From Cetorhinus maximus (taxonomy: Eukaryota): a stretch of DNA of 64,000 nt. Location: NCBI RefSeq assembly GCF_964194155.1, contig NC_135903.1, positions 30,194,001 to 30,258,000 on the forward strand, given 5' to 3'. Position numbers and translations under genes: made by a program. This document shows positions 355 to 61,782 of this stretch, piece by piece (position 1 is the first letter of the stretch; each line of letters opens with the position of its first letter). The notes beneath the pieces were generated by a model, which was given only the letters and a program-made list of their open reading frames with translations, was not told the origin of the DNA and ran no database searches.

Positions 355-1634
355 TCATGATCTAAAATTGTTGAACCCAATATTCAGTCCAGAAGGCTGT
401 AAAGTGCCTAGTCGGAAGATGAGGTGCTGTTCCTCCAGTTTGCGTTGAGCTTCACTGGAACAATGCAGCAGGCCAAGGACGGACATGTGGGCATGAGAGC
501 AGGGTGGAGTGTTGAAATGGCAAACGACAGGGAGGTCTGGGTAATGCTTGCGGACAGACCAAAGGTGTTTTGCAAAACGGTCACCCAGTCTGCGTTTGGT
601 CTCTCCAATGTAGAGGAAACCGCATTGGGAGCAACGAATGCAGTAGACTAAATTGAGGGAAGTGCATGTGAAATGCTGCTTCACTTGAAAGGAGTGTTTG
701 GGCCCTTGGACAGTGAGGAGAGGGGAAGTAAAGGGGCAAGTGTTGCACCTTCTGCAGTTGCATGGGAAGATGTCGTGGGAGGGGGTTGAGGTGTAGGGGG
801 TGATGGAGGAGTGGGCCAGGGTGTCCCGGAGGGAACGATCCCTGTGGAATGCCGCCGGGGGGGTGAAGGGAAGATGTGTTTGGTGGTGGCGTCATGCTGG
901 AGTTGGCAGAAATGGCGGAGGATGACCCTTTGAATGCGGAGGCTGGTGGGGTGATAAGTGAGGACAAGGGGGACCCTATCATGTTTCTGGGAGGGAGAGG
1001 AAGGTGTGAGGGCGGATGCACGGGAGATGGGCCGGACACGGTTGAGGGCCCTGTCAACCACCGTGGGTGGAAAACCTTGGTTAAGGAAGAAGGAAGACAT
1101 GTCAGAGGAACTGTTTTTGAAAGGAACAGATACGATGGAGGCGAAGGAACTGAGAGAATGGGATGGAGTTCTTACAGGAAGCGGGATGTGAGGAGCTGTA
1201 GTCAAGGTAGCTGTGGGAGTCGTTAGGCTTGTAATGGATATTGGTGGACAGTCTATCACCAGAAATTAAGACAGAGAGGTCAAGGAAGGGAAGAGAAGTG
1301 TCAGAGATGGACCATGTGAAAATGATGGAGGGATGGAAATTGGAAGCAAAATTAATAAATTTTTCCAGGTCCAGACGAGAGCATGAAGCAGCACCGAAGT
1401 AATCATCGATGTACTGGAGAAAGAGTTGTGGGAGGGGGCCGGAGTAGGACTGGAACAAGGAGTGTTCCACATACCCCATAAAGAGACAGGCATAGCTGGG
1501 GCCCATGCGTTACCCATAGCCACACCTTTTATTTGGAGGAAGTGAGAGGAGTTTAAGGAGAAATTGTTCAGTGTGAGAACAAGTTCAGCCAGACGGAGGA
1601 GAATAGTGGTGGATGGGGATTGTTTGGGCAACAA
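355..1634 (-). pseudogene. Penelope RT + GIY-YIG endonuclease, frameshifted
   Basis: RT motifs QIKGVAMG/MGPSYACLFM, YIDD, LPFLDL and HYKPNDSHSYLDYSSSHP. Endonuclease NLVYCIRC..C..LYIGETKRRL..RF..H, ending EQHLIFRLGTLQPSGLN. Motifs are split over several frames. Confidence 0.93.
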
Positions 1635-2114
1635 TCTTGTTGAAGCTCAATGCAAACTGGAGGAACAGCACCTCATCTTCCGACTAGGCACTTTACAGCC
1701 TTCCGGACTGAATATTGAGTTCAACAATTTTAGATCATGATCTCTCTCCTCCATCCCCACCCCCTTTCCGATCCCCCCCTTTTTTTTCCAATAATTTATA
1801 TAGATTTTTCTTTTCCCACCTATTTTCATTATTTTAAAATGTATTTCCATCCATTGTTTTATCTCTACCTTTTAGCCTTTTTCGATTCCTTCACCCCACC
1901 CCACTCCCACTAGGGCTATCTGTACCTTGCTTGTCCTGCTTTCTACCCTTAATTAGCACATTCCTTAGATAATATCACCAGCTTCAACACCTCTTTGACC
2001 TTTTGTCTGTAACATCTTTTGGTTATCTCCACCTATCACTGGCCCTTTATCCAGCTCTACTTGTCCCACCCCCCCTAAACCAGCTTATATTTCACCTCTC
2101 TTCTATTTTTACTT

Positions 2115-2153
2115 AGTTCTGTTGAAGGGTCATTCGGACTCGAAACGTTAACT
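2115..2153 (+). ncRNA. Minimal type I hammerhead ribozyme motif in the Penelope pLTR (variant core CUGUUGA)
   Basis: AGTT-CTGTTGA-A-GGGTC-attcg-GACTC-GAAA-C-GTT-AACT: helix I AGTT/AACT, helix II GGGTC/GACTC, palindromic AACGTT helix III. Confidence 0.75.
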
Positions 2154-3309
2154 GTGTCCCTCTCCGCAGATGCTGCCAGACCTGCTGAGTTTTTCCAGGT
2201 ATTTTTGTTTTTGTTTTGGATTTCCGGCATCCGCAATGTTTTGCTTTTATCTTAGAGTCAGGTTCATCTGACTATAGCCGTTGTGGGTTTTATTGTTGGT
2301 TTTGTTTGTTATTTGAATGTAAACTGGTGGTTTGAGAATCTGCAATGCGATATATCAATTAGCAGGTTTAAGAAAAGGAGATCATTAAACTCAGGAACTG
2401 GGAAAATGGGTGTTGTGGAAGAGATTAGACAAAGGTGGTGCAAGATTCCGGTTGCAGACAGACATGGGCTGGGGAAGAAGAGAATTCAACAGTGTATCGG
2501 ACATCTGGGCGGGGAATGGGGGGGTTGTATTAATGAAACCAGGAGATGCTAGGACAAATTAAGCAACTGAATGAGGGGGTGATGTAGCTATTACAGCAAG
2601 AAATGGAGAGTCAGGGAATTCAGAGAGAGCAGTCCCTGTGAACAATATCGAGTTTGGACATGAAAATGACAGACATTCTTGTTAGAATCCTGAAACAGCC
2701 TTGGTGGAAAGTTAATAGCTCTGGATATTGCAGTGCACGCCACCTACTTATCCCATACTCAAGACATCAGTTCCACAAACATGTTCATTCTTTTTCATTG
2801 TTTTATTTCTTTTAGCTAGATATCCTCTTTATCATCTTTAAGTAGTTTCCTCTCTTGGACCGACAAATTCTAATCTTCAATTGAAGCACATCAGATTAGT
2901 AAATGGGAATTTTACCTTCATTTTAATAAAGTGCCACATTACAGTTGGAATCTATGGGCATCTGTTTCTCAGACTGCCATTGTTTGCCCCTTTTTGCATT
3001 GAAGTTAGGAAAGATTTGGGACGTTTTATGAAAGTGACGGTGCCAGTAATTTTCAAAAGTGAAGTCTTGATCTGTCTCCTGGTTGCACTGAACTCCTGTA
3101 GCAGACCATCACACATTGGATTGAGTTCGCAACCGGTCTTATTTTCATGTTTAACAAGTGACTGTTAAATGTGGAGCAGCAAATGCCGATGGATTCCCCT
3201 GTTCCGCTCATTTCTCACCAAGCCATTGTGACATTTTAAGGGATCATTCTCCTGAAAAGAAGTGACTTACAAGCATTTATTTCTGTACTGATCTAATGGG
3301 GCCTGGAAA

Positions 3310-5097: not shown

Positions 5098-6290
5098 AGT
5101 TAATCCTACCACAAACCACACAAATTCTGCAAACACTATAGTATGAAATAGAATCTTGAATATTGTTTACAGGAAACATTTTACCACAGGCAGGATATTT
5201 ATTTTTTAAGAAAATGACAGACACTTCGTCGTTGGGATCAATTACATGCTGAGGAGATTTACATTAATACCTTAATTCCCTTTGAAAGAATGTAAATGTT
5301 TTATCACAGGTCTGTGTAAAGAGGTACGTGTAACCGGAATAAGACACACCGAAGACAAAACCTCTTTGGTCTGATCTTGTAGGGCTCGTAACATGGCCCC
5401 AATTCTTAATGAAATGGCACCCAATTTAACTTATTTGTTCTGTGGCCTTCATAGACTTCTTAGTCTCAATCCTACAATATAGTTTGATAACAGATTCTAG
5501 TGCATATTTCCAATGACAACGGAGTAGAACATGTGAAAGCATTGAAAATGTACCTTGCCTCAGGCAAGATGGCTTTCACAGGCATACTTAACACTTCATT
5601 ATTTTCAATTATTCTAACTTTAACATGAATAAACACGAGTGGGAGAGTGAACTCAAAGGTTGAAATAATCCATACTTGGCAAGCAAGAGGCTGTTTGCGA
5701 ATGCCTTGTTTTGATTTAATTCTTTCCGTTCAAATACATTAATTATTTTTGAAAAACCACAGTACAATCAGGGAGGTCTGTCTGACAAAGTGAAGATGGG
5801 CTTCAGCCGCGCCTCACTTTTGTGCTAATTGCAGCACTCCCTCATACCAGTTTCAGATCGATAGATACTTGCACGATACAAAGAAAGGCAGTTTGTCTAT
5901 GCAGATCTGAAAGGAAACTTTAAAACGAGAGTTTCATGCTTAACACAATGTAACATATCCCTGCAACATTTTCTACCTGTTCCCAGCCCTGTCACAACAA
6001 TGTTAAGCCATTTCTTAACACTTGTACCACTTGACTTAAACTTCTAAACCTTCATATTTTTCTTTATACCTTTATCAAATACTCAGAGGGAAGGTCTCTC
6101 GCTTCTGAGTCAGAAGACTGATTCTCCAGAGTGCTGCACTGTAAGCTCCTGTCTTTCAGGTGAGACATTAAACAGGTGTCCTGTCTGCCCTATCAGGTGG
6201 ATATAAAAGGTCCTGCAGTACTATTTTGAAGCAGAGCAAGGGAATTTTCCTTAGTGTGCTGCAAAATATTTATCCTTCAAGCAACATAAT

Positions 6291-14905: not shown

Positions 14906-15321
14906 AACAGATTCTCTTAAGGAAGGTAGACTACAATTTATAAAATCTTCAAGAAGAGAGTTCTATGAACCTAGTCCTAAAGATTAACAACTGTAAGATG
15001 AGGGATATCAGTTAAATATTGCAGTCTATATTATTTGGTCCTGACCAGTTGTTACTGCTTGCTTCCATGAAAATATCTGAGTTTGGTAGATCATGAGTAT
15101 ATTTTCCATAGAATATAATATCATTACTCTTTAAAAGTACAAGATTCAAAATGTACAATCTTAACACGAGGCACGTTTGCAACAAGATATAGGATATATG
15201 ATGTCTGTACAAATACACGTGCAATATTCAGTCAAGGCTTCTATAAGCCCTTAGAGCTTACAGGCCTTACCAGAGGTTTACCTGATTGAGTTTTTAAAGA
15301 ATATAAAAGCACTTCCTGGGA

Positions 15322-15400
15322 GCTGAAATTAAGCAGAAAATGCTGGAAAACATTCACTGGGTTATCCAGCACCTGTGGAGAGAGAAACAGAATTAATGTG
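15322..15400 (-). mobile_element. Degenerate Penelope family A pLTR tail fragment
   Basis: CAGAAAATGCTGGAAAA..CAGCACCTGTGGAGAGAGAAACAGAATTAA is the reverse complement of the tail at 34782-34850. Confidence 0.6.
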
Positions 15401-23334: not shown

Positions 23335-26300
23335 ATGGCAAGTGCAAGGCCACAGCAGAGCACTGAGCAGGCCAGTCCGGAGGGTGGGGGGCCAGTGTGC
23401 CCCTTGTTTTTCAGATGATTGACTTGCTGCCCTTATTGAGGAGGTGGCAGCACGGTGGAAGGTGCTGGTTCCCCAGGATGGGAGCAGGAGGCGCCCCACA
23501 TGACGAAACATGCCTGGGAGGAGGGGGCAGAGGTGGTGAGCTCCTGCAACGTGGTGCGGCGCACCTGGATCCAGTGTCGCAAGCGCTTCAACGACTTGTG
23601 CTCTGGCAGGGTGAGTACCATGTTGGCATTGGGCATTTAACCCAGCAGGTCAGTTTACCCACCCCTGCTGCAACCCCCCACCCCCAAGTCTGGGTGTAAC
23701 TACTGCACTGAATCATTGATGGCATTAGTCCTTTGCTGGATGGGCCAGCAGATACTGCCCATGCTGAAGTCAACCTGAGAGGGTGATGAGGAGTTGGAGA
23801 GTGACGTAGTTGAATTTGAGACTAGGGTCCTGAATCTTAATAAAGGAAACTACGAAGGTATGAGACGCGAGTTGGCTATGATAGATTGGGAAATATCACT
23901 TAAAGGGATGACGGTGGATAGGCAATGGCAAACATTCAAAGAGCACATGGGTGAACTGCAACAATTGTTTATTCCTGTCTGGCACAAAAGTAAAACAGGA
24001 AAGGTGGCCAAACCATGGCTTACAAGGGAAATTAGAGATAGTATTAGATCCAAGGAAGAGGCATGCAAATTGTACAGAAAAAACAGACCTGAGGATTGGG
24101 AGCAGTTTAGAATTCAGCAAAGGAGGACCAAGGGATTGATTAAGAAGGGGAAAATAGAGTATGAGAGTAAGCTTGCAGGGAACATAAAAACTGACTGTAA
24201 AAGTTTCTATAGGTATGTGAAGAGAAAAAGATTGGTGAAGACAAATGTAGGTCCCTTACAGTCAGAAACAAGGGAATTTATAATGGGGAACAAAGAAATG
24301 GCTGACCAACTAAATACATACTTTAGTTCTGTCTTCACAAAGGAGGACACAAATAACATACCAGAAATGTTGGGGAACACAGGGTTTAGTGAGAGGGAGG
24401 AACTGAAAGAAATCAGTATTAGTAGGGAAATGGTGTTGGGGAAATTGATGGGATTGAAGGCCGATAAATCCCCGGGGCCTGATAATCTACATCCCAGAGT
24501 ACTTAAGGAAGTGGCCCTAGAAATAGTGGATGCGTTAGTGGTCATATTCCGAGATTCTATAGACTCTGGAACAGTTCCTACAGATTGGAAAGTAGCTAAT
24601 GTAACCCCACTATTTAAAAAGGGAGGTAGAGAGAAAACAGGGAATTATAGACCAGTCAGCCTGGCGTCGGTAGTGGGGAAAATTCTAGAGTGTATCATAA
24701 CAGATTTAATAGCTGAGCACGTGGAAAACAGTGGCAAAATTGGACAGAGTCAGCATGGATTTACAAAAGGGAAATCATGCTTGACAAATCTACTGGAATT
24801 TTTTTGGGGATGTAACTAGCAGAGTTGATGAGGGGGAGCCAGTGGATGTGGATTATTTGGACTTTCAGAAGGCTTTCGACAAAGCCCCACATAAGAGATT
24901 GGTGTGTAAGATTAAAGCGCATGGGATTAGGGGTAGTGTATTGAGATGGATAGAAAAACCGGTTGGCAGACAGGAAACAAAGAGTAGGAATAAATGGGTC
25001 TTTTTCCAAATGGCAGGCAGTGACTAGTGGGGTACTGCAGGGATCGGTGCTGGGACCCCCAGCTATTCACAACATGTATTAATGATTTAGAAGAGGGAAC
25101 TAAATGTAATGTCTCCAAATTTGCAGATGACACAAAGCTGGGTGGGAGGGTGAGCTGTGAGGAGGATGCAGAGATGCTTCAGTGTGGTTTGGACAAGCTG
25201 AGTAAGTGGGTAAATGCATGGCAGATACGGTATAATGTGGATAAATGTGAGGTTATCCACTTTGGTGGCAAAAACAGGAAGGCAGATTATTACCTGAATG
25301 GCTATAAATTGAGAGAGGGGAATGTGCAACGAGACCTGGGTGTCCTTGTACACCAGTCACTGAAGGTAAGCATGCAGGTGCAGCAGGCGATAAAGAAAGC
25401 AAGCGGTATGTTGGCCTTCATAGCGAGAGGATTTGAGTACAGTAACAGGGATGTCTTGCTGCAATTGTACAGGGCCTTGGTGAGACCACACCTGGAATAT
25501 TGTGTGTAGTTTTGGTCTCCTTATCTGAGGAAGGATGTTCTTGCTATAGAGGGAGTGCAGCGAAGGTTTACCAGACTGATTCCTGGGATAGCGGGACTTA
25601 CATATGAGGAGAGATTGAGTCGGTTAGGATTATATTCATTGGAGTTCAGAAGAATGAGGGGGGATTGCATAGAAACCTATAAAATTCTAACCGGACTAGA
25701 CAGGGTGGATGCAGGAAGGATGTTCCTGATGGTGGGGGAGTCCAGAACCAGGGGTCACAGTCTGAGGATATGGGGTAGACCATTTAGGACTGAGATGAAG
25801 AGAAATTTCTTCACCCAGAGAGTGGTGAGCCTGTGGAATTTGCTAGCACAGAAATTCGAGAAGGAGTTAGATATAGCTCTTGCGGCGAAAGAGATCAAAG
25901 GATATGGGGAGAAAGCAGGAGCAGGCTATTGAGTTGGATCATCAGCCATGATCATAATGAATGGAGGAGCAGGCTTGAAGGGCCGAATGGCCTACTCCTG
26001 CTCCTATTTTCTATGTATGTTTCTATGTATGTGTTTTGCCCCCGCAGCATGTGTTACACTGAGTCCCACATGACTGGTTTGGGGGCAACCTGGAGGAGCT
26101 GCACCTAAGCACTGTGTTAGAGCTCCAGGACATGTCCAAGTCAGGGTGATGAGATGCTGGGAGGGGAGCTTCAAGGTGTCATGGCAACAAACCATCTGCT
26201 GTCCTCTGCGCTCCATGTGCTTGCGCCATGTATGGAAGGATATACCGAGTGGTGCCTAATGTGATGTAGGCAGCATGTGTCCAAGGGGGGGTGGGGGTGT

Positions 26301-31639: not shown

Positions 31640-33352
31640 GCAAGATCAAATCACAATGCTACTGCCTGTACTCTTACTCACATTAAGCCAGCATCTTCAT
31701 GACCCCTCCCATTTTCAATTTCCACTGGCTTCCAAGGAATCTAATTGAAAATTCTTGTCCTTCATTTAAAGGCCATGTGGCCATTATCTCCCATTATCTC
31801 CTTCGGCCCAAAGTCTCTATACCTTCTGCTTCTGTAACATATTCGTACACTCTGTTTTTTCTGTCCTGCCATTAGTAACTGCGCCTTCAGGCAATATAGC
31901 CTGTTCGCTGAATCTTCACCAGGGCCACTCAGCTCCTGACCTCATTACAGTCTTCGTTCGAACATGGGCAAACGAGCTGAACTCCAGAGGTGAGGTGAGT
32001 GCGACTGCCCTTGACATCAAAACAGCATTTGACCAAGTCTGGCATCAAGGAGCGCTAACAAAACTGGAGTCAATGCTAATCAGGGGGAAAGCTCTCCGCT
32101 GGTTGCACAAAGGAAGATGGTTGTGGTTGTTGGAGGTCAGTCATCTCAGCTCCAGGACACCACTGCAAGAGTTCCTCAGAGTAGTATCCGAGGCCCAACC
32201 ATCTTCAGCTGCTTCATCAATGACCTTCCTTCCATCATAAGGTCAGAAGTGGGGATGTTCGACTGATGATTGCACAATGTTCAGCACCATTCGTGACTCC
32301 TCAGATACTGATGCAGTCCATGTCCAAATGCAGCAAGAGCTGGACAATGTCCAGGTTTGGGCTGACAAGTGGCAAGTAACATTTGCATCACGTAAGTGCC
32401 AGGCAATGACCATCTCCAACAAGAGAGAGCCTAACCATCGCCCCTTGACATTCAATGGCATCACCATTGCTGAATCCCCCACTATCAATATCCTGGGGTT
32501 ACCATTGACCAGAAACTGAACTGGACAAGCCATATCAATACTGTGGCTACAAGAATAGGTCAGAAGCTAGGAATCCTGTGGTGAGTAACTCACCTCCTGA
32601 TTCCCCAAAAATTCCTGATTCCTCACCATCTACAAAGCACAAGTCAAGAGTGTGATGGAATACTCTCCACTTGCCTGGATGAATGTAGTTCCAGCAACAC
32701 TCAAGAAGTTTGACACCATCCAGGACAAAGCAGCCTGCTTGATTGATATCCCATCCACAAACATTCATTCCCTCTACTACTGGCGCAAGCGGCAGTAGTG
32801 TGTACTATCTGCAAGATGCACTGCAGGAACTCACCAAGGCTTCTTTGACAGCATTTCCAAATTGATGCCTGTTACCATCTAGAAGGACAAGGGCAAGATA
32901 CATGGGAACACCACCTCCTGATAGTTCCCCTCCAAGCCACTCGCTACCCTGACTTGGAAATATACCATCATTCCTTCACTGTCGCTGGGTCAAAACCCTG
33001 GAACTCCCTCCCTAACAGCACTGTGGGTGTACCTACACCACTTGGGCTGCAGCGGTTCAATAAGGCAGCTCACCACCACCTTCTCAAGGGCAATTAGGGG
33101 TGGGCAATAAATGTTTGTTTAGTCAGCGACATCCACATCCCATGAATGAATTTTAAAAATCCTTCAGCAACTGGCCTGTCGGCTCCCTCTCGCCTTCGTA
33201 GGCCTCCTTTGAGCCCTTTTCTTCAGCTATACTTTTATCCCCTCTTCCTGTTCACCCTGCAGCATAATGAGCACCATTTATCCACTCTTCCATGAAATGC
33301 TTTGAGATGTTTTGCTGTACATAGCAAGCACATCAGAAACGTAAGTTGTTGC
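31640..33352 (+). mobile_element. Old L2 LINE 3' fragment, split by the HER1-type insertion
   Basis: Degenerate NA.A..LT..K / FHWLP / KILVL region at 31640-31775; L2-like tail ending AACGTAAGTTGTTG near 33350. Confidence 0.5.
31891..33160 (+). mobile_element. HER1-type CR1-clade LINE, 5'-truncated
   Basis: ALDIKTAFDQVWHQG and DDCTMFSTI..WADKWQVTF; HE1-shared tail; imperfect TSD CCTTCAG(G)CAA at 31884-31894 and 33161-33170. Confidence 0.92.
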
Positions 33353-34056: not shown

Positions 34057-34749
34057 ATGTCAGATACCCAGCTGAAAACGTCTTTTATTGAAAGCCTCAA
34101 AACTCCAACCTGCAAATTGCAGCTCCAAACTGCAATTTCACCAGCATTCCAATCTGTGTTCAAACGCAAAGTTATTTTATAGAACCGAAGAAAAAGGCAA
34201 AAATACAAAAGCAAAACACCACGGGTGCTGGAAGCCTGACCAAAGGTCATCAAACTGAAAAACTCTTTCTCGCTCCATAAATGCTTTTCATTTTAAAAAG
34301 GCAACATAAAACTGACAGCAAGGTGGTTTTTGGAATTTATGATCTCACAAAATTCCTGCAAGCAATGGGTACATAGATCAAACTTGCACAAAATGAGTAC
34401 TTCTGCTGCAAGAACACTAGCAGCTCTGTACATACAAACATGGGATAGAACTTTTCTGAAGGGCAAGATAACAATTATTTAATTAACTCCTAGTTCAGTA
34501 TTGGCATGTTGGAAAAAGTTAGGAAAGAATGAGACTTTGTTCGGCCCCTAGAGACATGCTTTTGCATTTAGCATTTAGAACTTAGAATTGTAGATCTCTA
34601 GGGCCACACACATCCCATTAATTATTTCTTATTCTATTTTAAAATGTTATTCATGCTTCACTCTCATATTCTAATTCTTCTAGGCCTCTTGCTTTCTTAT
34701 TTAACTTTTTACAGTTGGGTTCTTCAGAAATTACATTCACATTTTATAA

Positions 34750-34852
34750 TCTCTGAAGAAGGGTCATACGGACTCGAAACGTTAACTCTGTTTCTCTCTC
34801 CACAGATACTGCTAGACCTGCTGAGTTTTTCCAGCATTTTCTGTTTTTGTTA
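34750..34852 (+). mobile_element. 103-bp hammerhead-bearing Penelope-derived mini-element with a 12-bp TSD
   Basis: TSD CACATTTTATAA at 34738-34749 and 34853-34864; body homologous to 2118-2215. Confidence 0.88.
34753..34787 (+). ncRNA. Minimal hammerhead ribozyme motif, canonical core
   Basis: CTGAAGA-A-GGGTC-atacg-GACTC-GAAA-C-GTT-AACT. The 5' strand of helix I is largely lost at the insertion junction. Confidence 0.75.
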
Positions 34853-34974
34853 CACATTTTATAAAGTTGTTACGTATTCATACATAGATTTTGCGGAGCT
34901 ACCATGTATATAGGTGCACATTCAAATATATTCGGTAAAGCTGTTGCACAATTAAGGGTGCATTCATGATTTTA

Positions 34975-35190: not shown

Positions 35191-35533
35191 AAGTTACTGT
35201 ATATTTTGGCACACATTTTCCAGAGCTGGATGCTCTCATACAGAGTTTATGAAGACGTGCATCCTGACTGAACAATGTCCGTGGAAGGATTGTATTGCCA
35301 CATCTCCTAATTGTACTGGAAGTGATTCAGGTTGGCATCAGAGGCAGACCCTTTATCCCCGAGTTCTGGGACTAGATATTCCCATCCCAAATCAGGATGG
35401 AATGGGAGCGGGACTGGAAAAAAAAATGGCTCCAGGGACCTTGCATGCACGGTCTGCCGCCTCCATTCCCTATTCTGATGATTTTCCAAGGACAGGGGAA
35501 GAGCAGGGGCGAGCAGGAGAGTGAAGTCTCCTT

Positions 35534-35669
35534 AATATAAAAGCAAAATACTGCGGATGCTGGAAATCTGAAACTAAAACAAAAATTGCTGGGAAAGCCC
35601 AGCAAGTCTGACAGCGTCTGTGGAGAGAAAGAGCCAACGCCCCGAGTCCAGATGACTCCTCCCCAGAAC
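35534..35669 (-). mobile_element. 136-bp Penelope-derived hammerhead mini-element, A-to-G mutated, with a 12-bp TSD
   Basis: TSD TGAAGTCTCCTT at 35522-35533 and 35670-35681. The reverse complement aligns with 2115-2250 and 34750-34852. Confidence 0.88.
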
Positions 35670-37054
35670 TGAAGTCTCCTTCCTCATTGGCTGGATGGAT
35701 CAAGGTCGTAGGGAGCTCATTAAGAGCTCGCCCTCTGAATTCTGGTATTTTCATAGGGTGAATGGCTGTTAAGAGCTCCCTGAGGCTGACCAGCGGCTAC
35801 TTGGTGGGAACAGGGCCATTGATACAGTTTTATTTAATGCAAAAAAGTGAAAGCTTGAATAAAAGCTACTGAGCAGTGATAAATTTTTACTACCAAGCCT
35901 TTCCCTACCCTATCCCTGTCTCTCCATTAGACAATTTGAAGATGAAGATCCTTTCATTTCTTTAAGGGCACACACAGATGACGTCCACAGCAATGTCTGC
36001 CGATTCAGGCAAGAATGTGGCCCATCTGTTCTGCCTCCATTTTTTCATCCCTTCGTAACCCCAGGCACTAACTGAGCAGGAGAGCCATGAAAGTCATTCT
36101 TCACGGCACGCTGGAGATGGAGCCAGAACCAAACCCACCTCCCGATTCCTGCCTCCAACAGAAAAATCCTGCCCCTGGAGCTGGTTATGGCCCCTTTGGA
36201 TTTGGCCCCTTTATACTGGCAGCCGTGTTAGTTGGGTTGGTGCTCCTCATGATTTATTTGGCCTGTTTCTTAATGAGATTGTGGTGTCACTGCATGGATG
36301 ACTGGCATTAGAAAAGGAGTTTTTCAGTTTTAAATTGGAAACAAAACATTTGTGTTCTTGTTGCTCTGTAATATTAGAAATGATCATATTTTTACAAAAT
36401 AGCTCTGACTGGTAGTGAAAAATGATGTTAATACACAGGTAATGCCTTCATTCAAACAGGGGACAAAAGAATTTCATAGACATGTATTAGCACATTCATT
36501 ACTAATCCCCCACAGCCCAATTCATCCAAATGAAAGATAAGAGTATATTTCAGTAACTGACACTCCTGACATGGAGTTTTGCCCTATGGAACTGTGTATT
36601 AGAAATTAATATACATCATCCTCTTGATTTCCCACTCATTCATTTAAATGTTTGTGATAAGGATGTGTGTGATGATGTGGTTGGAGTACAATATCTTTAT
36701 CAAATGTGTGTGCCCCAGTCATTATTTTCTTATTTGTATTTATTGATTTGATGTAGGAGCTCATATGCAGATAAGTGGCAACTTAAACAGGTACCTTGTT
36801 ACTCCAGAGATGTAAAATGCTAGAATATCCATTATTTGCATTCCACATATAGCATCAAGCATTACCTTCTTGCTTCCTCTGTTGATCTGCTTCACTCTCC
36901 ACAGGCCTGCCCCATATTGTGACCCAGATAAGTTGAAGTTTTCTACAGATGAATGTCAGCGAGACCAAAGCTAAGACCCCATCTTGTTGGACGCTGCCAG
37001 CACTGTGTATCACAGGTCTTCATTCCCCACTGTCAAAGGGATAATTCCAGAAGT

Positions 37055-47404: not shown

Positions 47405-50400
47405 AAGAATCATCCCAGGTTTGCACTAAGTGCGGTAGCGGGCTGGAAAAACGGCGTTTTGCCCGCTGGCTGCAATGGCGGCTTCTCACGCCATATTGTC
47501 CCAAACCCGCTGTATTAATTAAGTAATCCCAGGAAACACGCTGTTTCCATGGCGGATGAGCTCTCATTCGGCCGATATGCCACCACCTTGCTGCTTCATC
47601 ACACTTGGCACCATATTTAAAGTGCAGCCGCACACACTGCTCAGTGCTTCCAGCCCACGATTGCTGAACAGAAGACATGGCCCCAAAAGACAAAAAAACT
47701 GCAGCCCCCAGGTTCAATAACGCGTCCCTCAAGCAACTTTTGGATGCAGTGGAGGCTCGCCATGATGTCCTCTACCCCCACTCCGGCCGCATGACAAGCA
47801 GCAACCTCACTAATCTGGCGTGGGAGGCGGTGGCAGCAATGGTCAGTGCTAACGCCCTGCAAACGAGGACAGCCACCCAGTGCCACAAGAGGATGAAGGG
47901 TCTCTTTCATTCCGCCAGGATAAGTCACTCTTCTCATCACTCTCAACTCACACATTCACAAACCCATCACAGATCCACAGGGATCTCACTCACTGCTAAT
48001 TCAAGGGACATCACCATTCACTCTCTCACACACAACTTCATTGCCCTCATCCTGTCCATGACACGACTCACCACCCAAAATGCCAGGCATACTTATTATT
48101 CAGCGTGGCAGGCATCCTGCTTACACTCTCCATCTCTATTCATGCAGGATAAGTTGGCACACAACAAGAGGGAGAGGTCGCAGACTGGTGGAGAAATGCC
48201 TGAAATCAGGGTCCTCATGTACTTTGAAAACAGAGCCATCCAGCTGGCTGGCGAGGATCTGGACCGGTCCTGTGCTGACGGTGAGGTCGGCGCTGCTCTA
48301 CCAAGTGAGGATCCAGCAGTGCAACATCCATCAGACAACCATGCTGTGAGTGATGTGTCCTGTTTCACAGACCACTGGCATGCACTAATGACCTTTCTTT
48401 GCTTTCGCAGCCACACCTGAGAAACAGCCGACAAAGTCCACAAACCAGGGCCTCCAATCGAGCCCCGAAGGAACCACTGAAGAGGAATCTGAAGGCACCT
48501 TCATTGAGGACCTGTCACAGCGCTCACCCACGCCTTCCACCAGTCAGAGGCACACACTTCGGTGGGATCTAGCTTTAGCGCAGCCTCAGAATCACAATCT
48601 GGTGAGCACATCGCACTTCCTGATCCACAGCAGGCAGCAGCAGGTACCTCCCTGGCATCTGGCACTCGGAGGACTGCTGGAGGACAGAAATTTACTGAGT
48701 CTGAGTCCGATGACAAGCCTCGGGACTTGGCCATGTCACAGTTGCTGGAGCTGCAAAGGCAAGTTCAGAAACATCAGGAAGGGATGTCCGCTGCACTCCT
48801 CAGATTGCAAGGCACAATGGAGGAAACATAGAAACATAGAAACTAGGAGCAGGAGTAGGTCATTCGGCCCTTCGAGCCTGCTCCACCATTCAATATGATC
48901 ATGGCTGATCCTCTATCTCAATGCCATACTCCCACTCTCTCCCCATACCCCTCGACTCCTTTAGAGTCTTGAAATCTATCTATGTCCTTCTTAAATATAT
49001 TCAGTGACTTGGCCTCCACAGCCTCCTGTGGTAGAGAATTTCACAGGCTCACCACCCTCTGAATGAAGACGTTTCTCCTCATCTCAGCCCTAAATGGCCT
49101 ACCCCATATCCTGAGATTATGACTCCTTGTTCTAGACACCCCAGCCAGAGGAAACATCATCCCTGCATCCAGTCTGTGCAGCCCTGTCAGAATTTTATAT
49201 GTTTCAGTGAGATCCCCTCTCATTCTTCTAAACTCCAGTGAATACAGACCTAGTTGGCCCAGTCTCTCCTCATGCGAAAATCCTGCCAAGCCAGGAATCA
49301 GTCTGCTGAGCCTTCGCCACACTCTTTCTATGGAAAGTATATCCTTTCTTAGGTAAGGAGACCAAAACTGCACACAATAGTCCAGGTGTGGTCTCATCAT
49401 GGCCTTGTACAGCTGCAGTAAGACATCCTTGCCCCTGTACTCAAGCCCTCTTGCAATTTAGGCCAACATACCACTTGCCTTCGTAACCGCTTGCTGCACC
49501 TGCACGCTTGCTTTCAGTGATTGGTGTACAAGGACACCCAGGTCCCCTTGAATGTCAACATTTCCCAATCTATCACCATTTAAATAATGCTGTGCCATTT
49601 GGTTTTTCTTACCAAAGTGGATAACTTAACACTTATCCACATTATACTGCACCTGCCTTGTATTTTCACACTCACTCAACCTGTCTAAATTGCCTTGAAG
49701 CCCCTTACCATTCTCCTCACCACTCACATTCCTACCCAGTTTTGTGTCATCAGCAAACTTGGAAATATTACATTTGGTTCCCTAATCCAAATCATTAATA
49801 TATATAGTGAATAGCTGGGGCCCAAGCACATTTCCCTGTGGTACCCCACTAGTTACCGCCTGCCTTTCCAAAAAAGACCCATTTATTCCTACTGTTTGTT
49901 TCCTGCCTGCTAACCAATTCTCAATCCATTCCAATATATTACTCCCAACCCCATGTGTTTTAATTTTTCACACTAACCTCTTATGTGGGACTTTATCGAA
50001 AGCTTTCTGAAAATCCAAATACACCACATTCACTGGTTCTCCCTTACCTATTCTGCTAGTTACCTCTTCAAAAAGCTCCAGTAGGTTTGTCAAACATGAT
50101 TTCTCTTTCATAAACCCATGTTGACTTTGTCTAATCCCATTGATATTTTCTAAGTGTTCTGTTATCACATCCTTTATAATAGACTCTAGCATTTTCCCTA
50201 CCACTGATGTTAGGCTAACTGGTCTGTAATTCCGTTTTTTCCCTCCCCATTTTTTTAAATAGCGGGGTTACATTTGCCATTGCCCAATCTGCTGGGACTA
50301 TTCCAGAATTTACAGAGTTTTGGAAGATAACAACCAACACATTCAATTTCCATGGCAACCTCCTTTAGTACCCTAGGATATAGATTATCAGGCCCTGGAG

Positions 50401-52072
50401 ATTTATCAGCTTTCAATCCCATTAATTTCTCCAGCACTTTTTTTTTAGTAATATTAATTCCCTTCAATTCCTCCTTCTCACTAGACCCTTGATTCCCCAG
50501 TGTTTCTGGGGAGTTATTTGTGTCTTCCTCCGTGAAGAAAGAACTAAAGTAGTTATTGAATTGCTCTGCCATTTCCTTGTTCTCTATTATAAATTCTCCC
50601 ATTTTGGACTGTAAGGGACCTACATTTGTCTTCACCAATCTTTTTCTTCTTCCATACTTGTAGAAGCTTTTGCAGTCCTCTTTTATGTTCCTTGGAAGTT
50701 TACTCTCATACTCTACTTCTCCCCTCTTAATCAATCACTCGGTCCTTCTTTGCTGAATTCTAAACTGCTCCCAATCCTCAGGCTTGCTACTTTTTCTAGC
50801 AACTTTATATGACTCCTCTTTGAATCTAATACTATCCTTAATTTCTATTGTTAGCCATGGCTGGGGTCACTTTTGTGGTTGTGTTTCTGCACCAGTTGCA
50901 ATGCATACATTCATTCTTTAAATATTAGCCATTGCCTATCCACTATCGTGCCTTTTAATGAAGTTCCCCAATACAACTTAGCCAACTCATGACTCATACC
51001 ATCGTAGTTTCCTTTGTTTAGATTTAAGACCTTAGTTTTGGATTGACTACTAGTATTTGGACTACTTCACTTTCCAACCTAAGGAAAAAGTCTATCATGT
51101 TATAGTCACTGTTCCCTAAAGGACCCCACACAACAAGTTTACTAATTAACCCCTTCTCATTGCACAAAACCAAATCTAGGATAGCCTGTTCCCTAGTTAG
51201 TTCCTCTACGTACTGGTCTAAAAACCACCTCGTACACACTCCAGGAATTCATCTGCCACAGCATTATTGCTAATTTGGTTTGCAAATGTAGATTAAAGTC
51301 ACCCATGATTATTATAGCACCCTTGTTACACGCATCTCTATTTTCCTGTTTAATGTCATCTCTTACCTTACCGCTACTGTTTGGAGGCCTACAGACAGCT
51401 CCCACTAATGTTATTTGGCCCTTGTTGCTTCCTAGTTCCACCCAGACTGACTCTGCATCTAGATTTTCTGAGCCAATATCCTCTCTCACTATTGCACTGA
51501 TTTCATCCTTAACTAACAATGCCACACCATCTCCTTTTGGTCCTTCTTAAATATAGAATACTCTTGGATATTCAGTTCCCAGCCTTGGTCATCCTGCAGC
51601 CATGTCTCTGGAATCACAATCATATCATACCCATTTACACCTATTTGTGCTGTTAATTCATCTACCTTATTGCGAATGCTCCATGCATTCAGATAGTGCC
51701 TTTAAATGTCTTTTTACACATCTTTTTTAAAAAGACGAGTCTAAAGGCACTGTATCTGAATGCACAGAGCATGCGCAATAATGAGGAGCTGGTCCACCTT
51801 CAGTTTGTGGTGATAGCGCTGGCATGCCAACGCCATCGAGGTCAACACTGGTAGGACGGCAGCTGCCATGGAGACCTTGGTCCAGGATGTCGACCCTGCA
51901 CTGCTGCATGGGCTGAACTCCATCACTGATGCCATAGTTGGCCTCCAACAGTGGGTACAAGAGAGGGGTGTGGGGCAGCTCGACAGATTCCCCTTCTCCT
52001 CAAGGAATCAGCCAGGGGCTCTTGGGCACCCATAGGGAGGAGGATCAGCATGGGCCATCCACCCAGGCATTA
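47405..52072 (+). mobile_element. Harbinger fragment with a Myb/SANT gene, interrupted by CR1 at 48825-51779
   Basis: MAPKDKKTAAPRFNNASLKQLLDAVEARHDVLYP..AWEAVAAMVSANALQTRTATQCHKRM. First donor mutated (ATAAGT). Exon 2 DKLAHNKRERSQTGG. Coding-like sequence resumes after 51780. Confidence 0.85.
48825..51779 (-). mobile_element. CR1 LINE covering most of ORF2 (endonuclease + RT), decayed
   Basis: VALLVK, ESVWVEL, CRPPNS, MGDFN, AILDLVL, KSPGPD, YLDFQKAFDKVPH, RPHLDYCVQFWSP. (GAAACATA)n tail at the left; TSD AATG(G)AGGA at 48816-48824 and 51780-51787. Confidence 0.96.
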
Positions 52073-55080: not shown

Positions 55081-56025
55081 GTAGAATTTTAACTCCACAG
55101 CATGGGTTGTTTAGCCCTGACAGGTTTCCCATCTGGAGTCAGTCTGATTGACAGGCCACAGGGCGATTGCCAACCTCAGGTGTAGGATCCAATACGCGGG
55201 TGGGTTACTCAATCCCTAACCCCATTGGGGAGAGGGTGTATGATCCCTGATCTTGGGGGTTTTGTATGGGGGAAGTCAATGCAGGAGGGGAGCTTTAGGG
55301 GGAAAGGGGATACAGTGTAGCGAATCACTGTTGCTCCTTCTGGCCCATAAGCAGTGCTGTAAATGCACCTGCCTTCTCCCCTAATCTGTCATTTCTTTAA
55401 GACTTGGGAAACCTCATTAACATATTTAACATACCAGTCCACCTCCTCGGCATGTGTTGACTGCCCTCCACTTGTCCCACCTCTGTAAGACCCGGAAGTC
55501 AGCTGGGTGCGAGTCGGCTTTCATTTTTCCCGATTTAACCCCCGCACCCGCACCTAAACCTATCTGCTCACCTATTTAAAATGTCCCCCATAGAGAAGTC
55601 ATCTTTCCTCTGTTGCAAGATGTATTTTTTCCAAGACTGCGGTATAAACATGTTAAAAATTGAATCAAGAAAAGTGGTTTCTATAAAGAAATAATATTGT
55701 AGTGCTACAGAACTTAATATCAAGTGGGGCATATGACAGGCAGCCAATGCAATGCCCCATTTTGCAGTTACCCTTGATGAAGTTTGATCTGATGGGCTCA
55801 TGAGACTTTGCTTGAAAGCTCAGGGTGTTGGAGGGGGATTTCCCAGAGACTTTTCCAAGTTGGTTGCAAGCTTTCTCTTCATTCTGCTTTCTGTATCCAG
55901 GAGAAGAAGTGGTTAGGGGCTCTGTCACTGTTGTGCTACGTCAGTGATGTGTACAGTTTGCACCATCTTTGAACAAGATAGGCCTCCCCACCCTTTCTTT
56001 TTGGGTGCTGGAAAGAGAGACATGT

Positions 56026-56059
56026 TGCCGAAGCTTTTCATCTTGCACTCATCAGGACA
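56026..56059 (-). ncRNA. Minimal hammerhead ribozyme motif (family B)
   Basis: Minus strand TGTC-CTGATGA-GTgcaagAT-GAAA-AGC-TTC-GGCA: canonical core, palindromic AAGCTT helix III, helix I TGTC/GGCA. Confidence 0.78.
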
Positions 56060-56465
56060 AATGCAAGAATTCCAAATTTCAAATGATCATAACAACTTCT
56101 ATTACAGGAGAAAAGGGTGCTGATTGGTTGGCAAGTCAACTCTGGCTGAGGCATTGCCATGGAGAATGAGCCACATTACAAACCTGACTGATTATCTCAA
56201 ATTGGTTATTTGTGTAGCTATTCGCGCTCTCATTTACACTTGCTAGAAGCAACATACATTCCTGCACAGGGATCCATTCTCTGCAAACAAAAGGAATATC
56301 TTCATGCCTTGCACTTTTTTTGAATCACCAGGGAGCCTGGGGAGCCTAAAGTTTCCATTTGCTTCCTCCATGGCAATCTCTTGGCAAATCAGAGTCGCTT
56401 TGCCAACCAGCCAGCACCTTTTCTCCTGTAATATACATGGCTGTAAAATTTGGTATTCTTGCATT

Positions 56466-56499
56466 TGTCCTGATGAGTGCAAGATGAAAAGCTTCCAAA
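56466..56499 (+). ncRNA. Minimal hammerhead ribozyme motif (family B), helix I disrupted
   Basis: TGTC-CTGATGA-GTGCAAGAT-GAAA-AGC-TTC-CAAA. Confidence 0.68.
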
Positions 56500-56805
56500 A
56501 CACGTCTCTCTCTTCTGCAATATTCAAGTTCTACACCACCGAGCAAATGTTGACATGTCTTTTATAAAACTAATTGTAATTGAAGAATCCATAGTTGCGG
56601 TAAACTATCTTTGGTGAAAATATCATTAAAAATTTCAACTTTTATTATATTAAAGGGCCATTGCTGTTCCTGTATGATAAGGGTCATCAACTTTACAATT
56701 GCTGAAGGCAAAACTCAGCCAGAGTGAGATTTTATGGCAGCAAGAAAAAGCAATGAAACAGATCTAAACCGTGGCCAAATAGTTAAGTGCAACAGAGTGC
56801 AATGG

Positions 56806-57425
56806 AGTGCAAACTGGAGGAACAGCACCTCATCTTCCGACTAGGCACTTTACAGCCTTCCGGGCTGAATATTGAATTCAACAACTTCAGATCTTAAACT
56901 CCCCCTCCCCCCATCCCCACCCCGTTTCTTCTCCCACCCCCCCCACACCCCCCCCCCCACCCGCTTTTTTTTTCAATATTTATATAGATTCTTCTTTCCC
57001 CACCTATTTCCATTATTTTTAAATCTAAAACTAAAACCTTGTTAGCCTTTCCACCCCACCCCCACTAGAGCTGTACTTTGAATATCCTGTCTTCCATTCT
57101 TAATTAGCACTTTTCTCAGACAAAACACCTCTTTGACCCTTTTGTCTGTGACATCTTTTGATTATCTGCTCATCTCCACAATCACCACACCCTCAATGTC
57201 TCTCTCTCCCCCCACACACCCCCCCCCCAACCCACCTTAAACCAATTTATATTTCTCCCTTCTTCTAACTATGCTTCAGTTCTGCCGAAGGGCCATGAAG
57301 GCTCGAAACGTTAACTGATTTCTTCTCCGCCGATGCTGCCAGACCTGCTGAGTTTTTCCAGGTAATTCTGTTTTTGTTTTGGATTTCCAGCATCCGCAGG
57401 AGCTTTTAGCTTTTTGTTTTTATAC
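56806..57425 (+). mobile_element. Solo Penelope family A pLTR with an 8-bp TSD
   Basis: Encodes CKLEEQHLIFRLGTLQPSGLNIEFNNFRS*; homologous to 1651-2253; TSD TGCAATGG at 56798-56805 and 57426-57433. Confidence 0.92.
57276..57318 (+). ncRNA. Minimal hammerhead ribozyme motif (variant core CUGCCGA)
   Basis: TCAGTT-CTGCCGA-A-GGGCC-atgaa-GGCTC-GAAA-C-GTT-AACTGA, with a 6-bp helix I. Confidence 0.72.
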
Positions 57426-60496: not shown

Positions 60497-61782
60497 CAGC
60501 ACTTGCTTAGCAATACCCTGCTCACTGATGCCGGGGTTTGTGTTCTGCCAGGGCCACTCAGCTCCTGAGCTCATTACAGCCTTGGTTCAAACATGGGCAA
60601 AAGAGCGGAACTCACGAGGTGAGAGTGACTGCCCTTGACATCAAGGCAGCATTTGACAGAGTGTGGCACCAAGGAGCACTAGCAAAACAGGAGTCAATGG
60701 GAATCAGGGGGAAAACTCTCCACTGGTTGGAGTCATACCTAACACAAAGGAAGGTAGTTGTGGTTGTTGGAGATCAGTCATCTCAGCTCCAGGACATCAC
60801 TGCAGGAGTTCCTCAGGGTAGTGTTCTCGACCCAACCATCTTCAGCTGCTTCATTAATGACTTTCCTTCCATCATAAGGTCAGAAGGGGGGATGTTCGAC
60901 TGATGATTGCACAATGTTCAGCACCATTTGCGACTCCTCAGATACTGAAGCAGTCCACGTCCAAATGCAGCAAGACCTGGACAATATCCAGGCTTCAGCT
61001 GAGAAGTGGCAAGTAACATTCCTGCCACACAAGTGTCAACCATTAGCCATCTGCAACAAGAGAGAATCCAACCATCGCCCCTTGACATTCAATAGCATTA
61101 CCATCACTGAATCGCCCACTATCAACATCCTGGGGGTTACCATTGACCAGAAACTGAACTGGACAAGCCATATAACTACAGTGGCTACAAAAGCAGGTCA
61201 AAGGCTAGGAATTATGCAACGAATAACTCACCTCCTGACTCCCAAAAGCCTGTCCACCATCTACAAGGCACAAGTCAGGAGTGTGGTGGAATACTCACCA
61301 CTTGCCTGGATGAGTGCAGTTCCCACAATACTCAAGAAGCTTGACACCATCCAGTACCAAGCAGCCCGCTTGATTGGCACATCCAAAAACATTCACTTCC
61401 TCCACCACCGATGCGTAGTAGCAGCAGTGTATATCATCTACAAACTGCACCGCAGGAATTCACCAAGGCTCCTTCAATAGCACCTTCCAAACCCATGACC
61501 ACTACCACCTAGGAGGACAAGGGCAGCAGATAGATGTGTACGCCATAATCTAGAAGCTCCCCCCAAGTCACTCACCATCCTGACTTGGAAATATATCACC
61601 GTTCCTTCGCTGTCGCTGGGTCAAAATCCTGGAACTCCCTCCCTAACAGCACTGTGGGTGTACATACACCACATGGACTACATGATTCACGAAAGCAGCT
61701 CACCACTACCTTCTCAAGGGCAATTAGGGATGGGCAATAAATGCTGGCTCAGCCAGCGAAGCCGACATCCCGTGAATGAATA
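60497..61782 (+). mobile_element. HER1-type CR1-clade LINE, 5'-truncated
   Basis: ALDIKAAFDRVWHQG, GVPQGSVL, DDCTMFST, ILGVTIDQKLNW, YKAQVRSVVEY; HE1-shared tail. Confidence 0.95.

Follow-up and report, generated by a model that had tools for sequence, protein, structure and literature searches.

The window, i.e., the whole 64,000-nucleotide stretch of Cetorhinus maximus DNA analysed here, contains two short inserts that represent leader copies of a Penelope-like element (PLE), each flanked by exact 12-mer target-site duplications (TSDs). Positions in the family are numbered from the base that opens the 5' strand of helix I in the hammerhead (+1; 34749 in the case of insert 1). Insert 1 (34750–34852, plus strand, 103 bp) is templated from +3 to +103, a short 3' site, and has no tail; its TSDs occupy 34738–34749 and 34853–34864 (plus strand), and the last base of the left one is family position +1. 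Insert 2 (35534–35669, minus strand, 136 bp) runs from +2 to a long 3' site and includes a tail of ~35 nt, with TSDs at 35522–35533 on the 3' (tail) side and at 35670–35681 on the 5' side (both minus strand), the latter with a microhomology overlap with family +1. A flanking 12-mer like these was obtained in 0 of 200,000 random junction draws from the 64-kb window. The initial annotation had described both inserts as lying between perfect 12-bp TSDs, the first starting 3 nt before CTGAAGA, and both descriptions hold, with the strand of the second now given as minus. Its remark that a tRNA head and a Pol III box are missing from both inserts is also borne out: no tRNA is found in either insert, nor any A or B box, even with one mismatch allowed for the B box. 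A SINE-type head (tRNA, 5S, or 7SL, with an internal Pol III promoter) is accordingly absent from the inserts as judged by Rfam, tRNA, and A/B box searches.

Neither insert keeps an intact ribozyme. In insert 1, CTGAAGA begins at 34753, 3 nt inside the insert, and the absence of G+2 leaves just one or two of the four helix I pairs. The core of insert 2 is destroyed, reading CTGGGGA, with GGGG instead of GAAA; compared with its 29 nearest relatives it has 15 differences, nine of them A>G, at +8 to +76.

Other traces of the family are scattered over the window. A GIY-YIG fragment lies at 355–891 (minus strand; Pfam E 3.8e-4, below the cut-off) and belongs to a PLE copy that is related and broken; the long inverted arm of this copy, at 1641–2253 (plus strand), comprises 3' UTR, a TATA-like motif at 2086–2090, +1 at 2115, hammerhead, and tail; its partner arm, located outside the window, ends at +101. 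At 56808–57420 (plus strand), an older subfamily is represented by a long copy truncated at its 5' end, with +1 at 57278 and the core CTGCCGA; in its hammerhead region (57278–57320), helix II contains a compensatory C-G pair. A diverged short copy covers 15290–15399 (minus strand, ~+31 to +141), and a tail-only remnant at 34202–34239 (minus strand) matches the insert 2 tail at 82%. The window further holds LINE-like RT fragments, which are repeated (23779–26028, 31770–33166, 48826–51036, and 60548–61781), a Myb/SANT-like ORF that is possibly derived from a DNA transposon (47668–48420; Pfam E 1.3e-4), and a MITE-like element with an inverted-repeat pair (56006–56164 and 56366–56519; 77%). Three motifs made up of a pyrimidine tract and AG, at 34787–34805 and at family +90 to +143, resemble splice acceptors, and intronic inserts could act as cryptic acceptors.

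The hammerhead module and its parent element

The predicted minimal type I hammerhead of insert 1 (34753–34787, plus strand) is recognized from its sequence, from pairing over 145 copies, and from an architecture like that outlined in the available part of PMC4209133. The core (34753–34759) is followed by an unpaired A, helix II (34761–34765/34771–34775), GAAA (34776–34779), a palindromic CG, the predicted cut after 34783, and the 3' strand of helix I (34784–34787), the 5' strand of which is damaged. A loose CTGANGA..GAAA motif occurs in the window at chance level (10 found, 7.3 expected), Rfam reports no hammerhead at the gathering score or at E≤10, and insert 1 folds no better than shuffled sequences (z +0.36); the hammerhead call therefore rests on the family-wide architecture. 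Rfam matches to mir-7094 were rejected as being far under the gathering score. Among the 145 distinct copies, the pairs of the 5-bp helix II are kept in 133–141, the 11-nt core is intact in 83, and a C·A mismatch is present in helix I in 89, while double-sided (compensatory) changes are nearly absent. Minimal type I hammerheads of metazoan pLTRs are described as having a short helix I, an unpaired nucleotide before helix II, and a palindromic helix III (PMC4209133, in the part available). The family has this architecture, from which insert 2 departs in the core and insert 1 in part, in helix I. Recurrent deletions from ~+28 to +46 are seen in three copies (L036, L050, and L060); they span the cleavage site between short CTC repeats, and their junctions differ.

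The module is present at both ends (2859–3151 and 5848–6121 of the L163 sequence) of a 3-kb element in the same genome. This parent, L163, is frameshifted and encodes a GIY-YIG domain (E 3.3e-4), and the evidence for its RT is weak (RVT_1 at E 0.21, a DKG motif, and atlas DUF8422/RVT clusters at 0.92–0.97; a PDB search with the RT returned designed proteins only). With this weakness of the RT evidence, L163 has the organization of an EN+ PLE, i.e., an RT with a C-terminal GIY-YIG between two pLTRs. A zinc-finger-like linker, C-x4-C-x2-C, precedes GIY-YIG in the majority of the family and is altered in L163; according to the accessible text of PMC8557442, such a linker between RT and EN marks Neptune and Nematis. 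The motif points to Neptune as the parent clade, an assignment made from the linker and not from a tree. The inserts are the hammerhead and tail module of this Neptune-type PLE, which has a full-length parent in the genome, and L163 supports the origin from a PLE, with likely mobilization by PLE RT/GIY-YIG, that had been suggested at the outset. Downstream of +1, a uORF of 30 codons begins at +58, followed by the first ATG of the main frame at +175, so the module would serve as 5' leader as well as 3' end.

A 36-mer at +66 to +101 has 4,030 exact matches in the genome and its reversed control none. The copy sample consists of the first 100 of the 4,030 matches, all with the exact 36-mer and all from the first 106 Mb of one contig (C1); removal of L126b (the other arm of an insertion already included) and L091 (which duplicates L080) leaves 98 copies, comprising 32 long copies, 28 solos, and 38 head-to-head doubles. 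TSDs of 9–17 bp (mode 14) are present in 48 of the 98, compared with 10 of 263 in the control. The optional 30–40 bp tail typical of EN+ PLEs, often on one side only, is also found in the family.

The 5' boundary and the likely RNA start

The 5' ends of the 98 copies are concentrated at one point. While 28 are at +1 to +4, just four are at −5 to −1 and three within −60 to −6; a further 31 are scattered over −61 to −1473, and 32 fall at +5 to +66 with a shoulder at +5 to +15. Nearly half of the cDNAs that reach +4 (32/66) stop within −5 to +4, and this wall exceeds the stop rates both upstream (0.0007/nt, P 2e-52) and downstream (0.005/nt, P 1e-25). A TATA(A/T) motif is located at −29 to −32 in 15 of 21 full-length 5' pLTRs, and a TATA motif at −29 in 11 of 13 long copies of the older subfamily. 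The motif precedes the wall by 31 nt, and a distance of 29–32 nt from TATA to start is the canonical Pol II spacing. The same boundary appears in ORF-bearing copies, where 7 of 30 5' ends (5 of 28 events) start at −5 to +3, though the query favoured longer ones.

In young pLTRs, the wall coincides with a hairpin spanning −10 to +16 (−3.8 to −10.3 kcal/mol in 20/21; loop at ~+2 to +5), which could make it an RT stop on a longer RNA. An RNA cut on such an RNA, at a 3' splice site or some unknown processing site, would have the same effect, and here it is relevant that a YnAG acceptor-like sequence (pyrimidine tract and AG) ends at +2, that an intron in D. virilis ends at helix I (PMC4209133, in the part available), and that the 5' ends have a shoulder at +5 to +15. 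The older subfamily speaks against the hairpin: it has been lost there (−0.7 to −2.9 kcal/mol in 12/13 copies), yet the wall stays, with 5 of 30 main arms ending at −1 to +3. As for splicing, 46 solos have no sequence in common at −1 to −8 that could correspond to a shared exon 1, there is no GT(A/G)AG donor within 1,274 nt upstream, and templated ends include G+2, which would be inside the intron. A stop or cut on a longer RNA is therefore considered unlikely. Since full-length copies begin at +1 too and the wall persists without the hairpin, +1 is the likely RNA start, and on these grounds a Pol II start at +1/+2 is the likely origin of the boundary.

The base at the start is not uniform: G is present at +2 in 30 of 46 solos, A at +1 in 14 of these 30, and of these 14 a single one has an additional G ahead of A+1 that might be cap-derived. 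No DPE match is found at +28. RNA contigs, the form of all 23 runs listed, were compared for four runs; their depth drops past +1 in X3 and X4 and not in X1 and X2, and the four sets contain no pile-up of starts or ends and no usable splice joint; contigs by their nature cannot show starts. The leader layout of the shark element is not universal, since the D. virilis Penelope has, according to the available parts of the reports, a TATA-less internal promoter (PMC2377424) and a hammerhead well downstream of the start (PMC4209133).

Double copies, and probable internal priming and editing

The 3' ends fall at two sites ~35 nt apart, with 45 of 100 at +101 to +114, 55 at +135 to +143, and none between, within a range limited by the anchor on one side and the reference end on the other; insert 1 ends at the first site, whereas insert 2 extends to the second. 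The apparent microhomology at the 3' junctions is an uncontrolled observation. In the head-to-head doubles, a short arm is combined with a long one in 36 of 38 cases (19 expected, P 2.5e-9; the short partner arms include four that end at +63 to +85), two long arms occur in none, and the rule holds in all four long inverted pairs. Subfamily sites are common to both arms in 70 of 86 comparisons against a shuffled mean of 0.62, a significant excess at the four chosen sites, and minor variants in 11 of 27; when all sites are used, the likeness between arms is 0.872 against a shuffled maximum of 0.875 and is not significant. The junctions of 37 of the 38 doubles are distinct, and 2 of 13 solos with TSDs carry a stub of 7–9 nt of the opposite arm.

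These properties of the doubles fit priming on both cut target strands. Doubles could instead arise by fold-back self-priming on cDNA or on an antisense template, with solos as their collapsed remains, a model that has been proposed for rotifer PLEs (PMC3846280, as far as its available text goes) and that would agree with the variants common to both arms and with the perfect palindromes centred at +2/+3 in 2 of 38 doubles. A folded, short-primed cDNA cannot yield an arm with a tail, however, and nothing would make a long-primed cDNA halt at the short site; mixed doubles nevertheless make up 36 of 38, with no long/long case among them. Edited solos, moreover, read A>G on the sense strand (three cases, from a biased search). 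Because of the short/long pairing and the absence of long/long doubles, priming from both target nicks is favoured over antisense self-priming, and we regard the latter as very unlikely.

The clustered A>G changes are on the hammerhead strand in three solos, insert 2 (nine changes), L139 (eight), and L142 (five), and the core is destroyed. RNA that forms a hairpin is expected to carry clustered A>G changes when edited by ADAR. The pattern in insert 2 suggests ADAR-like editing, with the proviso that a biased search lies behind the three solos. Clustered editing is rare, with none of 134 unbiased arms having five or more A>G or T>C changes. Genome-wide pattern matches numbered 5 for A>G and 10 for T>C, but the patterns required three and two changes, respectively, and are thus not matched; among the 10 T>C matches, 8 have just two or three such changes, and the richest sits in a double. 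A more extensive case is a 1,068-bp segment that contains a double and is duplicated in inverted orientation 78 kb apart (L242, 934–2001, and L243, on contig C12). The two differ by 16 A>G changes in two 100-bp bins over the hairpin, all on one physical strand, compared with one A>G in bins 1000–1699 and 1900–1999 of the shared 1,068 bp. This suggests that an edited hairpin RNA was copied back. Doubles can accordingly be re-copied as passengers, some copies are secondary, and insert 2 may be derived from such an edited, double-type hairpin RNA. L242, L244, L245, and L246 have PLE insertions of four different builds at an identical position in one host repeat of high copy number; a target preference for this site is possible, the search being biased toward it.

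Probable run-off copying and comparison with known elements

The inserts probably correspond to the first ~103 or ~138 nt of the hammerhead leader of the PLE, copied by an RT that starts internally and runs off the 5' end of an uncleaved mRNA. The initial annotation had instead proposed a promoterless, SINE-like ribozyme family with an uncleaved, multimeric, or circular RNA as template. Its PLE origin and short size class stand, as does the uncleaved template, since 2 of 136 arms end at +34 to +38 compared with 35 at +1 to +4, and the random truncation ends without a short class that it had named as the contrary outcome are not what is seen, the short size class being non-random. Self-propagation is not supported. 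Short and long copies are alike at 14 of 15 polymorphic sites and equally diverged (8–10%; 98 of at least 4,030 copies), and the sole differing site, +25 T, is enriched in long copies; C>T at this helix II position is found in 7 of 32 long and 1 of 54 short copies. Source genes of their own or short-specific subfamilies, as expected of a SINE, are not found among the 98 copies.

A self-propagating ribozyme SINE, or a retrozyme made from multimeric or circular RNA, would account for a distinct size class with TSDs and at least 4,030 copies; one double has been transcribed, edited, and re-inserted, and non-LTR retrozymes are reported to derive from pLTRs (bioRxiv 10.64898/2026.07.22.740005, in its available part). 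Retrozymes are, however, defined by tandem units and circular RNAs (PMC7229834 and the same preprint, as far as available), and the window contains no head-to-tail hammerhead array, none of the 98 copies has an adjacent head-to-tail neighbour, and the four with a same-orientation neighbour within 500 nt are all at least 180 nt away from it. The ends lie at +1 and the tail sites, away from the cleavage site, which also goes against the proposed multimeric or circular template. Furthermore, short copies have no variants of their own and the same age as long ones, the junctions of the doubles are unique in 37 of 38 cases, the double that was re-copied moved within 1,068 bp of flank and not by its own ends, and no more than 83 of 145 copies retain the 11-nt core. 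Inserts that span the cut site can be accounted for by the 5' end of a linear mRNA, so circles are not needed, and self-propagation is highly improbable. The inserts are a by-product of a known element and not a new SINE class; rather than a SINE or retrozyme, they probably represent run-off copying of the leader of the PLE mRNA.

In such a mechanism, the PLE RT would begin at one of two internal sites and run off the 5' end of a TATA-driven, uncleaved mRNA. A start in the 3' copy of the module would give ordinary, long 5'-truncated insertions, a start in the 5' copy would give stubs, and priming by both nicked target strands, one per site, would give a head-to-head double. The TATA motif is missing from the stubs, which are probably dead on arrival. 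Somewhat more tentatively, we favour an insertion reaction on sense RNA in which a dimer uses the short site for priming on one cut strand and the long site for priming on the other. As the start sites are also present within the first 140 nt of the mRNA, most insertions would then be retro-copies of a capped leader headed by the hammerhead. If this two-primer reading is true, the stubs record, across the genome and in fossil form, where the transcript and both RT starts lie and where ADAR edited the template. Debate on PLE transposition concerns the polarity of the template (sense or antisense), the choice between self-priming and twin priming, and the role of the hammerhead, and the stubs bear on each of these. 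From them, the RNA is predicted to start at +1/+2 and each strand to have a single start site; the hammerhead would remove 35 nt together with the cap from the mRNA and should nevertheless be uncleaved in the RNA that is copied. The many solitary minimal hammerheads of animal genomes could also be explained in this way, with no need to invoke another mobile element.

Truncation, inverted arms, one-sided tails, and solitary hammerheads are already in print. Within the literature accessible to us, including part of PMC6765202, neither a 5' wall coinciding with the transcript start nor a pairing of short with long arms is described; subscription papers and supplements may contain such a description, and the titles listed include no paper on edited PLE copies.

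A close functional parallel is the anole PLE Poseidon_Ac, for which in vitro TPRT, as described in the available text of PMC11167929, involves two internal RT starts, an uncleaved RNA template, and cutting and extension of both strands. As in the shark family, the two starts bound the tail and the template is uncleaved; both strands are cut and extended, and a dimer is predicted. The leaders differ, with the Poseidon_Ac ORF starting in stem II and the shark family having a uORF at +58 and its first main-frame ATG at +175. The main text for Poseidon_Ac, as available, does not describe a 5' wall or a pairing of start sites across strands, although supplement figures may show 5' ends (PMC11167929).

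Published insertion units of EN+ PLEs share a 5'-truncated pLTR, an adjacent inverted copy, and a one-sided tail of 30–40 bp (PMC8557442 and PMC3846280, in the parts available). Their truncation is described as variable, whereas two thirds of the shark copies stop at or below one base, resulting in units of 100–140 bp, and the short/long arm rule (36/38) is quantified here. Non-LTR retrozymes are likewise small, non-coding, and PLE-related, with a type I hammerhead and long TSDs, but the available descriptions (PMC7229834; bioRxiv 10.64898/2026.07.22.740005) present them as head-to-tail repeats of ~150–450 bp with circular RNAs. Unlike these, the shark inserts occur singly or in head-to-head pairs, and their limits are +1 and the tail sites. 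The hammerheads of PMC4209133, in the part of that study available, resemble those of the shark in the short helix I, the unpaired nucleotide, the palindromic helix III, and their occurrence mostly as single, dispersed motifs, and differ in that the shark family has a helix II of 5 bp and a helix I C·A mismatch in 89 of 145 copies. The single motifs are explained there as truncated PLEs in general, whereas the shark copies have a defined 5' boundary.
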